From positions 40,861 to 104,860 of IMG/VR virus record IMGVR_UViG_3300024507_000282: a stretch of DNA of 64,000 nucleotides. One strand, given 5' to 3'. The notes below the pieces were generated by a model. That model ran no database searches. It had not been told where the DNA came from and saw only the letters and a list, made by a program, of their open reading frames with translations. Positions 58,641 to 64,000 of the stretch are shown one piece after another. Positions within the stretch are counted from its first letter, which is position 1. The number at the start of each line of letters is the position of its first letter. The stretch comes from a virus. Taxonomy: Duplodnaviria; Heunggongvirae; Uroviricota; Caudoviricetes. The position numbers and the translations under genes are program-made.

Positions 58641-59021
58641 AGATTTGGAAATGAAAATGAATTTTGAAGATTTTAGAAAACAGAAAAGTGCCAAAGTGCT
58701 AAGTGAGCATGAACTGGACGACGATGCTTTTGAAAAACTCATCGAAGAAAAGTTTAATCGTGCTCGTGCTTATCACACAGCACTTTACAAGAGAGAAGTT
58801 GAGCTCGTAGAGCAAGACTAATCTCAAACGTGTTATAGGGAACGCGACCCTGCCTGCACGTAAAACATGGGCTTAATGTGGGCGGCCTACCGGATGGTAA
58901 GTTCTAGGCGATAACTAGAATGTGTAAAAAGGTAGCGTATTAAAGCATACTGCCGAACAATCAAATGGCAGTAGCCGATGAGTAGTATGCTTTAATACAC
59001 ACTTTCGAAAGAGAGTGTTAT

Positions 59022-59096
59022 GTATCCCTAGTGTTAATGGCAGCACGACAGTCTCCAAAACTGCTAGTCGGGGTTCGAGTCCCTGGGGGTACGCCA
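59022..59096 (+). tRNA. tRNA-Trp (CCA)
   Basis: acceptor GTATCCC/GGGGTAC, D GTGT/GCAC, AC loop CTCCAAA, T-arm GTCGG-GGTTCGAGT-CCCTG region, CCA encoded. Confidence 0.75.
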
Positions 59097-59101
59097 ATAA
59101 T

Positions 59102-59179
59102 GCAACGGTGGCAGAGAGGCCCAATGCAACGGATTGCAAATCCGTAAAACCGTCAGTTCAAATCTGACCCGTTGCTCCA
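59102..59179 (+). tRNA. tRNA-Cys (GCA)
   Basis: acceptor GCAACGG/CCGTTGC, AC stem ACGGA/TCCGT loop TTGCAAA, T-arm GTCAG-TTCAAAT-CTGAC. Confidence 0.7.
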
Positions 59180-59187
59180 GGTTATAT

Positions 59188-59277
59188 CCCCCGTTAGCTC
59201 ATGGAGAGCAGGTCGGCTTATAACCGATTAATCTAGATAAGGTCCAGGATGAGGTTCGATTCCTCAACGGGGGACCA
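59188..59277 (+). tRNA. 90-nt tRNA with long variable region; anticodon loop CTTATAA (UAU, Ile2-like?)
   Basis: acceptor CCCCCGT/ACGGGGG, AC stem GTCGG/CCGAT, T-arm TGAGG-TTCGATT-CCTCA; D and variable arms atypical. Confidence 0.45.
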
Positions 59278-59290
59278 TAAGGAGAATATT

Positions 59291-59353
59291 ATGGCAGTAC
59301 TTGTAGTGTTAGTTATAATGTTCGTGTTGTATCAAGTTTTGAAAAAATATTAA
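59291..59353 (+). CDS. 20-aa hydrophobic micro-ORF inside tRNA array
   Basis: strong GGAG SD 6 nt upstream; MAVLVVLVIMFVLYQVLKKY. Confidence 0.25.
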   Translation: MAVLVVLVIMFVLYQVLKKY

Positions 59354-59448
59354 AAGGAGAGTAGCATGAAACGTGCTAAACGTTAGTGTCACTCTAGATC
59401 TCCCGTATGGTCTAGGGTTGGCACGTAAAATCAAATCAATACGTACAA

Positions 59449-59524
59449 CCCTGTTTAGCGTCAATGGTAGCGCACTTGACTCTTAATCAATGAGGTGTGA
59501 GTTCGAATCTCACAGCAGGGACCA
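59449..59524 (+). tRNA. tRNA-Lys (CTT)
   Basis: acceptor CCCTGTT/AGCAGGG (G.U), D GCGT/GCGC, AC loop CTCTTAA, T-arm GTGAG-TTCGAAT-CTCAC. Confidence 0.6.
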
Positions 59525-59527
59525 TAT

Positions 59528-59602
59528 GGGGGTATAACTTAATGGTTAAAGTAGCGGGCTTTTAACCCGTAAATCAGAGTTCGATTCTCTGTGCCCCTAC
59601 CA
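59528..59602 (+). tRNA. tRNA-Lys (TTT)
   Basis: acceptor GGGGGTA/TGCCCCT (two G.U), D ACTT/AAGT, AC GCGGG/CCCGT loop CTTTTAA, T-arm CAGAG-TTCGATT-CTCTG. Confidence 0.7.
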
Positions 59603-59784
59603 TATGAAAGCATTCTTAACTGGTCGCATAGCGTCAGTAGTAAGGACGGGCCACCATCTTATGACGAAAAAGGCATAAGAGTGCTTCCATATGGTAGTGT
59701 ATAAAAACAAACTAACCACAGCCAGGAACTATAGACTCTGGGTGCATAGCGCATTGTCGTTAGTTTCTTTTTGTATAGTATTAT

Positions 59785-61567: not shown

Positions 61568-61653
61568 GGATGTGTAGGAAAATTGGTAACCCCAGTGGAC
61601 TGTAAATCCGCCGCCTTACGGCACTGCTGGTTCGACTCCAGCCGCATCCACCA
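61568..61653 (+). tRNA. tRNA-Tyr (GTA), type II
   Basis: acceptor GGATGTG/CGCATCC, AC GTGGA/TCCGC loop CTGTAAA, variable hairpin GCCttacGGC, T-arm GCTGG-TTCGACT-CCAGC. Confidence 0.7.
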
Positions 61654-62793
61654 TTAAGAAATAGCATTGACGGGTATCGTCTATGGACGCATAGACTTAT
61701 GAAGGATAAGGCCATCTTACCCTTCTGAGAAAACCGTGAACAATGGCTTATGAGGAGAATCGAACTCCACTCAGAAATACGTTTCATCCCATAGGGTGTA
61801 ATGTTATTTTTTAATGGTAAAAATTTAAGGGTAGTTTATTATCCTGTTGGCGGTTCGCCGTTGACGAAGAATAAGTTGAGTGATCAACCCAAAGGAGGTA
61901 AGCCTACGCAACTCCGCCAGTAATGGTTCATGTAAACAAGCCTGCTCACTACCGCGAGGTAGCGTTCACTGAGAAGACCGGTGGATGTAACAATGAAGCA
62001 AGTGTTAGGGAAAGAATGTGTATCGACTGGCCCGCAAGGGAACCAGGGTGCATGAAAAGTAACGGGTGGTGCTGACTTCCTAACAAAACCAACTTGCGAA
62101 TTGGTATGAGAAAGGGTAGTGTATTTGTCCAAGGGGTCGCTCCTAAGGGCTTGTATGCAATATTAATGGTTAGTGGACTGTTTTGATGCAGGACATTGAT
62201 CGTGAAATATCACTGAGTAGTCCGCGAGACAAAAGGTATGTGGTGAGTTGTATTCAGTAATCCAAAAGGTTATTGAGCAACAGAGGCAGCTCATCGCGGT
62301 AGGTTTGATATAGCGTAATGGTAACGCAATTGCCTCTTAAGCAATGGACTGTTGGTTCGATCCCAACTATCGATTATAAAATGCAAAGACTGCCTCGGTC
62401 ATATGTGAAAAGCATCTAATACTCGAGCCGCAAGGTAATCGAGTCAGACGTAGCTCGCAAGGTGAAATCTGTTTATGCTGGAAGTTTCGTAAGTGGTTAG
62501 CGCCGCTGAATGGCTCGCAAGGTCAACGGAGTAGATAGCGTAGAATAGCATATGGCGACAAGACTACTGCCTGTCTTTAAAAACGGCGATGCTGATAGTG
62601 GACATAGGTACAGTAATGGCTTATGTGGATGTCTAGAGAAGGTTGGCTCGCAAGGCTGACTATAATGCTAGAGGCACTATTGGCTAACGTATAATCTCAG
62701 CGTTAGCACTATTCTAAAACACATTAGCTCGAACCGAATAACGGCATTATAAATGCTTCTGGTAGTTGGTTAGTGTGTTTCAGAATAGAATTT
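61654..62793 (+). ncRNA. 1.1-kb ORF-poor spacer in the tRNA array carrying a repeated GCYCGCAAGG motif (5 copies) and many hairpins; candidate structured RNA(s)
   Basis: no + strand ORF over 60 aa; motif at 62029, 62425, 62451, 62511, 62643; one pseudo-tRNA inside. Confidence 0.35.
62297..62366 (+). pseudogene. tRNA-like pseudogene (D-arm, CTT anticodon arm, T-arm present; acceptor stem unpaired)
   Basis: D GCG/CGC, AC ATTGC/GCAAT loop CTCTTAA, T-arm GTTGG-TTCGATC-CCAAC; no 7-bp acceptor helix, no CCA. Confidence 0.35.
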
Positions 62794-62870
62794 GCACCGT
62801 TAGCTCAGTTGGTCAGAGCGCCGGCCTGTCACGTCGGAGGCCAGGGGTTCAAGTCCCCTACGGTGCGCCA
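62794..62870 (+). tRNA. tRNA-Asp (GTC)
   Basis: acceptor GCACCGT/ACGGTGC, D GCTC/GAGC, AC CCGGC/GTCGG loop CTGTCAC, T-arm AGGGG-TTCAAGT-CCCCT. Confidence 0.8.
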
Positions 62871-62884
62871 AGATAACTATTAAT

Positions 62885-63688
62885 ATGAAAACACTTTTAA
62901 TTTTAGGAGATTGCCAAAGTAATGGCAATAATTGTTTGGCTGGTGACATAGTCAACGACGATGCTCCGAGGACTTGGAGTCTACGTTTCCATAATGATTT
63001 TAGAAGTGTTTTTAAATGGTATCTAAAACATAGAAAAGAAAACAATGTTACAACACCTATGCCCAATGGCAATATGGAAAATGTTGTTTGGCATTATCTA
63101 TGGGAAGAAGAACAAAAAGCCGCATGGCCTAATTTCTTAAATGTTTCCAATGTAGTTAATATATCTATTAACGGTGGACATTTTATAGGTCATCACAAAA
63201 GATTAAAACAGTACCTAGCAGAGAATCCTAAACCGGATCATGTATTAGTTACAGATTACACGTTTAGTCATATAGCACACAGTTTCAAATATAACAATCA
63301 ACGATATGTATTTGAACGTGAAAATTATGTAGACGGAGAATGGAATCCAGATAGATATCCAATTGAAGTTCATAAAAAGCGATTAAACGGTATTGCTTTT
63401 CAAAAAAGTCAAAGCAAAGATTGGCATATTCGTAGACATAGAAATGGTTACAATATGTTAATTAAGTTTTTAGATTCTCAAAATATTAAATGGACGACTG
63501 TTAGGTTTGGAGATCCTAATCCTGACAACTCAGAAATTTTTAAAGAGTTTATGCACACTGGTATAGATTGTACTGAATACGGAAAACAGTATATGAGTGC
63601 TAATGGTGAGAATGCAAAAATTAAATTGTCTGTGCAAGAAAAAATTGCAACGACAATTCAGGAATACTTAAATAGTATTGTCAGTTAA
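62885..63688 (+). CDS. AT-rich hypothetical protein embedded in tRNA array (possible Cys-variant GDSL/SGNH-like fold)
   Basis: 267 aa ORF; N-terminal LILGDCQSNGNN resembles SGNH block I with Cys in place of Ser; lower GC than surroundings. Confidence 0.45.
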   Translation: MKTLLILGDCQSNGNNCLAGDIVNDDAPRTWSLRFHNDFRSVFKWYLKHRKENNVTTPMPNGNMENVVWHYLWEEEQKAAWPNFLNVSNVVNISINGGHFIGHHKRLKQYLAENPKPDHVLVTDYTFSHIAHSFKYNNQRYVFERENYVDGEWNPDRYPIEVHKKRLNGIAFQKSQSKDWHIRRHRNGYNMLIKFLDSQNIKWTTVRFGDPNPDNSEIFKEFMHTGIDCTEYGKQYMSANGENAKIKLSVQEKIATTIQEYLNSIVS

Positions 63689-63689
63689 T

Positions 63690-63773
63690 GCCCTGGTGGT
63701 GGAATGGTAGACACGCTGGTCTTAGAAGCCAGTGGCGAGAGCCGTGAGAGTTCGAGTCTCTCCTGGGGCACCA
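63690..63773 (+). tRNA. tRNA-Leu (TAG), type II
   Basis: acceptor GCCCTGG/CTGGGGC, AC CTGGT/GCCAG loop CTTAGAA, variable hairpin GGCgagaGCC, T-arm GAGAG-TTCGAGT-CTCTC. Confidence 0.7.
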
Positions 63774-63779
63774 AAATAT

Positions 63780-63855
63780 GCGGGTGAAGTGTTTGTGGTT
63801 ACACGTCAGTCTTCCAAACTGAAATAGACGAGTTCAACTCTCGCCTCCCGCTCCA
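63780..63855 (+). tRNA. tRNA-Gly (TCC)
   Basis: acceptor GCGGGTG/CTCCCGC (one U.U), D GTGT/ACAC, AC TCAGT/ACTGA loop CTTCCAA, T-loop TTCAACT. Confidence 0.7.
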
Positions 63856-63860
63856 TCATT

Positions 63861-63937
63861 CGGAGTGTAGCGCAGTCTGGTAGCGCATCTGGTTTGGGAC
63901 CAGAGGGTCCAAGGTTCGAATCCTTGTACTCCGACCA
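63861..63937 (+). tRNA. tRNA-Pro (TGG)
   Basis: acceptor CGGAGTG/TACTCCG, D GCGC/GCGC, AC TCTGG/CCAGA loop TTTGGGA, T-arm CAAGG-TTCGAAT-CCTTG. Confidence 0.7.
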
Positions 63938-63947
63938 ATGTTAGTTT

Positions 63948-64000
63948 GCCTGGTTAGCTCAGTGGTAGAGCGTCTCGTTTACACCGAGAGGGTCGGCAGT
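63948..64000 (+). tRNA. tRNA-Val (TAC), 3' end beyond window
   Basis: acceptor GCCTGGT, D GCTC-AGTGGTA-GAGC, AC TCTCG/CGAGA loop TTTACAC. Confidence 0.6.

Follow-up and report, generated by a model that had tools for sequence, protein, structure and literature searches.

In bacteriophage T4, tRNAs and the stable RNAs rnaC and rnaD lie head to tail in one operon, and mycobacterial tRNA arrays contain the RNA GOLLD together with a pseudo-tRNA (PMC6582537). Cryo-electron microscopy has resolved GOLLD as cages with the linker inside, tRNAs occurring in this linker, and the solved structures are the 14-mer of env-38 and the 12-mer of Streptococcus agalactiae (PMC12286853; PMC12990946). The insert reported for the Mycolicibacterium GOLLD is of the Phe type (PMC12990946). 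The present study examined a 64,000-nt stretch of a Caudoviricetes genome (IMG/VR record IMGVR_UViG_3300024507_000282, positions 40,861 to 104,860), hereafter called the window, and concentrated on its end, at 58.9-64.0 kb. This region is probably the first three quarters of an island of at least 34 tRNA genes that supplies decoders to an uncultivated large phage. The locus is a mixed RNA operon, in which the tRNA island is accompanied by a newly found GOLLD RNA and by two or more structured RNAs that fit no family. The tRNA array and GOLLD are of known kinds, whereas the tRNA variants and the extra RNAs appear to be undescribed. Compared with this locus, T4 has only 8 tRNAs against at least 34, a long-arm tRNA-Leu, and no GOLLD.

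For the comparison with related phages, a search with a 267-amino-acid open reading frame (ORF) in the island returned the identical IMG/VR contigs L001 and L002, which come from two other samples, and diverged relatives were represented by L003 (a 278-kb contig) and L004 (a 110-kb contig), each of which carries a tRNA array at this ORF. Among 50,697 phage records, megablast matched single tRNAs only and revealed no close cultured relative. With default settings, ARAGORN found 27 genes in the whole window, 24 of them plus-strand tRNAs within 58900-64000, while those outside the island were tRNA-Thr(UGU) at 31473, a tRNA with the anticodon CUA at 53825, and a permuted transfer-messenger RNA (tmRNA) at 47.7 kb. 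Rfam, at curated thresholds, bore out nearly all ARAGORN genes and added the gene at 63948-64000, which is cut by the window end and could be read as Val(UAC) from L002. In addition, a more permissive Rfam run gained Pro(UGG) (60190-60262, 31.6 bits), and ARAGORN at a lowered threshold (-ps80) added Ala(UGC) and a CCA-less remnant. The total for 58900-64000 amounts to 26 stand-alone tRNA genes, including the weak Ala gene and the gene cut by the window end, one tRNA-like domain within GOLLD, and one remnant, and the original prediction of about 27 tRNAs, all on the plus strand, therefore holds. A CCA end, which had been claimed for most of them, is encoded in every stand-alone gene. All genes lie on the plus strand with a spacing of typically 2-10 nt, so that 26 genes in 5.1 kb of a phage genome give the tens of co-oriented, packed tRNA genes by which large-phage tRNA islands are recognized. 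Past the window end, L002 continues with Val, Asn, Glu, Gly(GCC), initiator Met, a second CAU gene, and Arg(CCU), by which the island reaches at least 34 tRNA genes and covers all 20 amino acids. Moreover, the three commonest Leu codons of the phage (shares of Leu codons: TTA, 0.34; TTG, 0.22; CTA, 0.21) match its three Leu anticodons. Transcription of the island, which contains two near-consensus sigma-70 promoters, would yield a small number of long precursors. Host RNase P, RNase E, and exonucleases would cut these into units, and the resulting decoder set may sustain phage translation regardless of the tRNAs available in the host.

The stretches that had been treated as spacers or pseudo-tRNAs in the original prediction include a GOLLD RNA of about 836 nt, a conserved structured RNA of 220 nt, and a structured leader, all of which share the strand and the spacing of the tRNA genes. 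The GOLLD RNA sits between the Tyr and Asp tRNAs, and its conserved 3' domain (62240-62703) matches the Rfam family RF02032 over the entire model (1-416 of 416) with 207.2 bits against a gathering threshold of 150 (E = 4e-57). The 5' domain (~61868-62239, ~370 nt) is homologous in six contigs (L069, L121, L144, L190, L231, and L215), and the RNA is therefore taken to be ~836 nt long; 45 of the 103 predicted pairs of this domain are compensatory, and the minimum free energy z-score of 61654-62239 is -2.93. What had been described as an acceptor-less copy of a CUU tRNA turned out to be a complete tRNA-Lys-like domain inside GOLLD, since it scores 62.5 bits as a full-length Rfam tRNA and has a 6-7 bp AU-rich acceptor-like stem, only the CCA being missing. 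In the Rfam alignment, this 74-nt insert separates the first hairpin of the 3' domain from the pseudoknot, starting 63 nt after the beginning of the domain. In nine contigs and the window, ARAGORN called the GOLLD insert as Lys(CUU), Lys(UUU), or Asn(GUU), in each case lacking a CCA, and an NUU anticodon was always found in the linker inserts of the window clade (L069, L090, L121, L124, L190, L215, and L231).

The full 3' match, the ~370-nt 5' domain, the site in a tRNA island, and the tRNA-like linker insert are all shared with known GOLLDs, whereas the 5' domain of the window is no more than 66-76% identical to its nearest relatives, and the insert is of the Lys/Asn type in the window clade instead of the Phe type of Mycolicibacterium. 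A scan of viral contigs with a 14-nt GOLLD motif gave mostly chance matches, from which the real loci were picked out with nhmmer. GOLLD with an embedded tRNA is also present, unannotated, in the phiCbK-like Caulobacter phage CcrMagneto (169 bits; insert Lys(CUU)) and in Sinorhizobium phage Phosso (187 bits); the GenBank records of both phages lack a GOLLD annotation, that of CcrMagneto listing a tRNA-Lys only. Compared with the window, these GOLLDs show ~67-69% identity in parts of the 3' domain and no detectable homology in the 5' domain. CcrMagneto further resembles the window in its permuted tmRNA, which there adjoins GOLLD. By analogy with the solved structures, the GOLLD of the window may assemble into a cage, and because the linker lies inside the cage in other members, the tRNA-Lys-like domain would be tethered and unprocessed.

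The 220-nt RNA starts right after the CCA of tRNA-Thr(UGU), ends 7 nt before tRNA-Gln, and is conserved in L003 and L121. A long helix closes the RNA, which further contains a T-arm-like hairpin and a loop with the self-complementary AGCCGGCU. Its 24-nt 5' motif was detected in more than 116 IMG/VR contigs, in none of the 50,697 GenBank phage records, and, among 185,579 species genomes, only in three short lake contigs of metagenome-assembled genomes with discordant taxa; these are probably mis-binned phage DNA, and a host assignment from them was rejected. No Rfam family matched the RNA at E ≤ 10. An alignment of 78 sequences revealed 41 pairs, 24 of them compensatory, with 98.1% of the paired cells able to pair (84.6% in shuffled alignments and 27-46% with slid partners) and a covariation score of 0.371 versus 0.129. 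In 78/78 sequences, the loop closed by CCCG/CGGG contains a perfect GC-rich palindrome of 6-10 nt, which takes 18 forms, including GUCCGGAC, GCCGGC, GCUCGAGC, and GUCGAC. A contiguous palindrome is unable to fold on itself, and its simplest reading is thus the symmetric pairing of two copies; self-pairing of the 220-nt RNA by way of this loop, whose palindrome covaries, is probable.

In 52/77 loci, a tRNA CCA precedes the RNA at a distance of 0 or -1 nt, and the next tRNA follows 5-8 nt downstream in 40/77. A positional precedent exists in T4, where tRNA-Arg is followed after 1 nt by rnaD and, after another 6 nt, by rnaC, and rnaC likewise has a T-arm-like hairpin. Several known identities were considered and rejected. 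Blastn against the 50,697 phage records, T4 included, gave no match at all and hence no sequence similarity to rnaC or rnaD, the likeness being one of genomic arrangement. YrlA/Y RNA was discarded as RF02553 had no match on 60340-60580 at E ≤ 10, its 24.8-bit match covering the Gln and Arg tRNAs. An RNase P-like reading, prompted by the resemblance of GAGAAAGUC and CCGGCUUA to conserved regions of RNase P RNA, was rejected because GUC pairs with a GAC elsewhere with covariation and GGCUU belongs to the variable palindrome.

The tRNA genes themselves deviate in several respects. U.U acceptor mismatches had been claimed for five genes, and the ARAGORN structures and the acceptor table bore out all five, namely U6.U67 in tRNA(CUA), Thr(UGU), and Gly(UCC), U5.U68 together with U6.U67 in Thr(GGU), and two adjacent U.U in His. 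Among the tRNAs of the window and the L002 continuation, all internal acceptor mismatches (7/7) are U.U, each adjoining G7-C66, and apart from these, mismatched acceptors of stand-alone genes are limited to Gln (U1.U72) and the initiator (C1xA72). The mismatches are real and not register errors, as two independent predictors agree and relatives maintain them; ARAGORN placed the mismatched registers as claimed and did not return perfectly paired stems. In L004, Thr(GGU) has the same acceptor with both U.U kept, and its D, anticodon, and T stems are compensatorily changed relative to the window gene, while the His gene of L003, which differs from that of the window by one base, also keeps both U.U. 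In a set of 1552 unique CCA-encoding tRNAs from 239 phage loci, U.U was the commonest acceptor mismatch (98/194), with 43 cases at 1.72 (nearly all Gln), 34 at 6.67, 9 at 4.69, and 7 at 5.68. U1.U72 was found on three different Gln stems, in 40 of ~53 Gln genes, and the internal U.U were concentrated in Thr(UGU) (9/55), Thr(GGU) (9/40), His (8/40), and Asn (5/49). The U.U acceptor mismatches are genuine, lineage-wide, and recurrent in particular isoacceptors, and at 5.68/6.67 this pair is tolerated by Thr, His, and Gly tRNAs, the identity positions of which are intact. The suggested parallel with T4 tRNAs found weak support only: T4 tRNA-Ile(CAU) does have U6.U67, but it is just one of eight T4 tRNAs.

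Other details of individual tRNAs had been anticipated as well. In the His gene, for which C73 and a possible G-1 had been proposed, G60733 pairs with C60804, which is followed by CCA at 60805-60807, giving an encoded G-1:C73, the Rfam register running from 60734. The G3:U70 noted in Ala(UGC) is present together with ACCA, in a gene with a reduced D arm and no Rfam match at E ≤ 1. The duplicates stood in part: the anticodon UGG occurs twice (60189, weak; 63861, strong), as does the loop CTCTTAA, whereas the second copy of the latter, at 62303-62376, is not acceptor-less. A further reduced D arm was observed in Arg(UCU), which has 72 nt, a 3-bp D stem, and no 8-9 linker, and was missed by Rfam; L003 has a gene of this form as well, its T stem covarying, and the other 43 Arg(UCU) genes of the set have 75-78 nt.

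The original prediction had also assigned short variable arms to the tRNAs with the Leu anticodons UAA and CAA, and this proved correct. Leu(UAA) has 77 nt with a 4-nt variable loop and Leu(CAA) 78 nt with a 6-nt variable loop, so neither is a canonical long-arm (type II) tRNA-Leu, and the long arm is kept in Leu(UAG) (12-nt arm), both Ser tRNAs, and Tyr. The ARAGORN structures of the two short-arm tRNAs show a 3-bp D stem, an 11-nt D loop, A14, A15:U48, G18G19, and A73. For the leucyl-tRNA synthetase (LeuRS) of E. coli, the long arm and the anticodon are dispensable, whereas A73, A15-U48, G18G19, and the D/T tertiary pairs are required (PMC9976931). The short-arm tRNAs carry the listed LeuRS determinants (A73, A15:U48, G18G19, and a Leu-type D arm), and, the long arm being dispensable for the E. 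coli enzyme, they most likely represent ordinary acceptors of Leu from which the arm was shed. They keep the elements that suffice for LeuRS in an engineered minimal E. coli tRNA-Leu without the long arm; unlike that construct, they are natural and common in one phage group, short-arm forms making up 33/38 unique Leu(CAA), 27/62 Leu(UAG), and 14/64 Leu(UAA) genes of the set. In L003 and L004, the short Leu tRNA is Leu(UAG), and in the Leu(CAA) of L003 the 9-nt loop is unpaired.

The original prediction did not single out tRNA-Ile(UAU), which with its conserved additional arm is the most unusual of the tRNAs. Its 21-nt variable region forms a 3-bp stem with the loop UAGAUAA, and the counterpart in L003 has 92 nt. 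The long form was found in 32/42 unique Ile(UAU) genes of the 239 phage loci. In all long genes, including that of the window (33/33), the first three pairs of the hairpin are always paired and the loop is Y-A-G-A-U-N-A; the stem covaries (C-G/A-U, G-C/A-U/U.G, and C-G/A-U), and YAGAUNA occurs in 32/32 long Ile(UAU) genes versus 0/273 other tRNAs with variable regions of at least 10 nt. Save for an A at the second position, the arm loop equals the anticodon loop of tRNA-Ile(GAU), which is YUGAUAA in these phages. Of the Ile determinants known from E. coli, C4-G69, U12-A23, C29-G41, A35, U36, A37, A38, and A73 are present in the window gene, and the one deviation is at position 34, which is U where the rule for isoleucyl-tRNA synthetase (IleRS) is G or lysidine. 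One might hypothesize that IleRS, or else an enzyme that acts on U34, recognizes the arm as a surrogate handle, which stays at the level of hypothesis since the arm position equivalent to 37 varies. In class I synthetases, moreover, the variable region of the tRNA faces solvent. A built-in pairing of the arm loop, read as an AUN codon, with the UAU anticodon of the same tRNA was considered less likely than mimicry of the GAU loop, because the position that would face U34 varies (A/U/G), in contrast to the invariant A, G, A, and U. No description of such an arm was found in the literature searched. Mycoplasma and lactic acid bacteria have tRNA-Ile(UAU) with the same anticodon, but the known bacterial genes have short variable loops, and the nematode nev-tRNA(UAU) likewise combines the UAU anticodon with a long variable arm. 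The phage gene differs from the latter in its short hairpin, in its invariant AGAU loop seen only with UAU, and in carrying Ile and not Leu determinants.

Several observations weigh against the island as a decoder supply built throughout of functional parts. The region 60025-60266 (Ala, remnant, and Pro) scores poorly and is not conserved in relatives, and the island may for this reason be partly decaying. Fully paired and U.U forms of the same Thr(GGU) acceptor coexist among relatives, so that the mismatches may be neutral, and tolerated variation fits this coexistence as well as selection does. Two good intergenic plus-strand sigma-70 matches (61349-61377, 11/12; 61488-61516, 10/12) represent the three internal promoters that had been proposed, the third not being borne out, and promoter-like sites are not significantly enriched (17 versus 10.1 +/- 3.6 in shuffles). 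That the short-arm tRNAs would accept Leu is deduced with rules established for E. coli, and both the GOLLD cage and the self-pairing of the 220-nt RNA are predictions from sequence.

Taken further, these points lead to the alternative that the irregular genes are decaying copies without function, under relaxed selection and drift in AT-biased DNA, to which the U.U stems, the shortened Leu arms, the reduced D arms, and the additional Ile arm would all be due; we regard this as unlikely for the set as a whole. It accounts for the sub-threshold, unconserved Ala(UGC), remnant, and Pro(UGG), the last of which has a normal counterpart at 63861, for the polymorphism of the Thr(GGU) acceptors, and for an antisense tRNA 3'-half fragment at ~61735-61775. 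It does not account for the mismatched Thr(GGU) acceptor being kept while three other stems covary, for the persistence of U1.U72 on three Gln stems in most Gln genes, or for a mismatch spectrum as non-random as seven U.U in seven cases at two positions. Nor would decay be expected to leave the LeuRS determinants in short-arm Leu tRNAs that are common across the phage group, or an invariant loop on a covarying stem in every long Ile(UAU) gene. The antisense fragment lies on the minus strand within the unassigned 61654-61830, between Tyr and GOLLD, and comprises a T arm (GGAGUUCGAUUCUCC) and an acceptor 3' strand.

Somewhat less probable still is that the deviations are an adaptive escape from host defence enzymes that cut or inactivate tRNAs, whose recognition features would be lost with the long arm, with a paired acceptor, or on the addition of an arm. 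Phage tRNAs are known defence targets, bacterial Schlafen cleaving both host and T5 tRNAs (PMC13056530), and the deviant traits recur over many phage contigs. Human SLFN11 is reported to cut long-arm (type II) tRNAs, but bacterial Schlafen cuts the anticodon arms of Lys, Met, and Ala tRNAs and not long-arm tRNAs (PMC13056530), and because no long-arm specificity is shown there, escape was kept as a rival of low confidence. Moreover, the Ser and Tyr tRNAs of the same phage retain their long arms, and no nuclease of such specificities has been shown for any candidate host.

It is very improbable that the short-arm "Leu", the long-arm "Ile(UAU)", and tRNA(CUA) carry amino acids other than those implied by their anticodons. 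This idea draws on the nematode nev-tRNA(UAU), which is charged with Leu (PMC3333845), on one long-arm Ile(UAU) subfamily with the 3-bp D stem found in long-arm tRNAs, and on the presence of a CUA anticodon, yet the window Ile(UAU) and the short-arm Leu tRNAs have the determinants of their own amino acids. The tRNA(CUA) (53825-53898, plus strand) has an anticodon of the amber-suppressor type, U6.U67, A73, and CCA. Stop-codon recoding through it was rejected in view of ORFs that are long and intact under the standard code: TAG terminates one of 40 long ORFs, with no read-through extension, and no in-frame TAG recoding was seen. A wrong folding register or a sequencing or assembly error, suspected from the hand folding of the original prediction and the low Rfam scores of His (36 bits) and Gly(UCC) (40 bits), is refuted by the agreement of ARAGORN and Infernal on the registers, the identical sequence in the independent contigs L001 and L002 from two other samples, and the same features in diverged relatives.

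Besides GOLLD and the 220-nt RNA, the locus holds further conserved elements. The structured leader (58876-59008, ~135 nt, plus strand) lies directly upstream of tRNA-Trp; nhmmer found homologs upstream of Trp in L003 and L004 and, in addition, at the contig start of L121, RNAalifold on four sequences gave 34 pairs with 13 compensatory, and Rfam had no match. A long inverted repeat fills the interval between GOLLD and Asp, and its nhmmer match in L003 (8344-8421) likewise lies just upstream of Asp. The 267-amino-acid ORF has the same place in L003 (56% identity) and L004 (48%), with no Pfam, PHROG, or cultured-phage match to indicate its function; a resemblance to the first block of SGNH/GDSL hydrolases is seen at its N-terminus (LILGDCQSNG). 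A hydrophobic plus-strand mini-ORF of 20 codons (59291-59353; MAVLVVLVIMFVLYQVLKKY) follows a strong AAGGAG site between Ile(UAU) and Lys(CUU), and 115 nt at 59321-59436 (plus strand) are conserved upstream of the Lys genes in L121 and L069. The features of the island are collected in Table 1.

Table 1. Features identified in the tRNA island at 58.9-64.0 kb of the window
Feature	Position	Strand	Evidence and remarks
tRNA-Trp(CCA)	59022-59096	+	ARAGORN; Rfam 48.0 bits; first gene of the island
tRNA-Cys(GCA)	59102-59179	+	ARAGORN; Rfam 59.7 bits
tRNA-Ile(UAU), 90 nt	59188-59277	+	ARAGORN; Rfam 45.9 bits
tRNA-Lys(CUU)	59449-59524	+	ARAGORN; Rfam 57.7 bits
tRNA-Lys(UUU)	59528-59602	+	ARAGORN; Rfam 70.5 bits
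tRNA-Ile(GAU)	59785-59858	+	ARAGORN, Rfam
tRNA-Glu(UUC)	59865-59939	+	ARAGORN, Rfam
tRNA-Ala(UGC), weak	60025-60099	+	ARAGORN -ps80 only; G3:U70, CCA, reduced D arm
CCA-less tRNA-like remnant, weak	60104-60178	+	ARAGORN -ps80 only
tRNA-Pro(UGG), weak	60189-60266	+	Rfam 31.6 bits; ARAGORN -ps80; C1-G72, A73, CCA
tRNA-Thr(UGU), U6.U67	60272-60346	+	ARAGORN
220-nt structured RNA	60347-60565	+	Conservation and covariation; no Rfam family
tRNA-Gln(UUG), U1.U72	from 60573	+	ARAGORN, Rfam
tRNA-Arg(UCG)	from 60654	+	ARAGORN, Rfam
tRNA-His(GUG), G-1:C73, two U.U	60733-60807	+	ARAGORN, Rfam
tRNA-Phe(GAA)	from 60814	+	ARAGORN, Rfam
tRNA-Leu(UAA), short arm	60897-60973	+	ARAGORN, Rfam
tRNA-Arg(UCU), reduced D arm	60975-61046	+	ARAGORN
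tRNA-Thr(GGU), two U.U	61049-61122	+	ARAGORN
tRNA-Leu(CAA), short arm	61128-61205	+	ARAGORN, Rfam
tRNA-Ser(UGA), long arm	61252-61341	+	ARAGORN, Rfam
tRNA-Ser(GCU), long arm	61386-61480	+	ARAGORN, Rfam
tRNA-Tyr(GUA), long arm	61568-61653	+	ARAGORN, Rfam
GOLLD RNA	61868-62703	+	Rfam RF02032 and 5' domain homology
tRNA-Lys(CUU)-like domain without CCA	62303-62376	+	Within GOLLD linker; Rfam tRNA 62.5 bits
Inverted-repeat element	62704-62793	+	nhmmer match to L003
tRNA-Asp(GUC)	62794-62870	+	ARAGORN; Rfam 71 bits
267-amino-acid ORF	62885-63688	+	Homologs in L003 and L004
tRNA-Leu(UAG), long arm	63690-63773	+	ARAGORN, Rfam
tRNA-Gly(UCC), U6.U67	63780-63855	+	ARAGORN, Rfam
tRNA-Pro(UGG)	63861-63937	+	ARAGORN, Rfam
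tRNA-Val(UAC), cut by window end	from 63948	+	Rfam, L002

Elsewhere in the window, genes for rIIA/rIIB, a class I ribonucleotide reductase (12452-14779), Hsp70 (24974-26839), and a cell-wall hydrolase were present. The permuted (two-piece) tmRNA (47671-48134, plus strand) has the predicted tag ANASTFEYFTVEGFTADNGLVAA, and permuted tmRNAs also occur near the arrays of L004 and Caulobacter phage CcrMagneto. The plus-strand interval 56690-58178, immediately before the island, contains putative AhpC-like peroxiredoxin and AhpD-like ORFs, so read from their translations.

Beyond the decoder island, it is conceivable, if rather doubtful, that the locus carries two RNA devices, the Ile(UAU) arm as a recognition handle resembling the GAU loop and the 220-nt RNA as one that dimerises or oligomerises via its palindrome. 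If the handle were true, a host synthetase that normally demands G34 or lysidine would accept a UAU tRNA. The strict link between the UAU anticodon and the AGAU-loop arm suggests that the AUA codon is dealt with in a way not recognised so far. If charged, the short-arm Leu tRNAs would be a natural confirmation that bacterial LeuRS needs no long arm. Self-assembly of the 220-nt RNA, if true, would add a third case to GOLLD and ROOL in phage tRNA islands, and together with a GOLLD that may tether a tRNA-Lys-like domain, this RNA provides material on the role of cage-forming and self-pairing RNAs beside tRNA genes. In summary, the present results suggest that phage tRNA islands can combine tRNAs, variant tRNAs, and large structured RNAs in an RNA operon, although they are usually seen as simple codon-usage patches.

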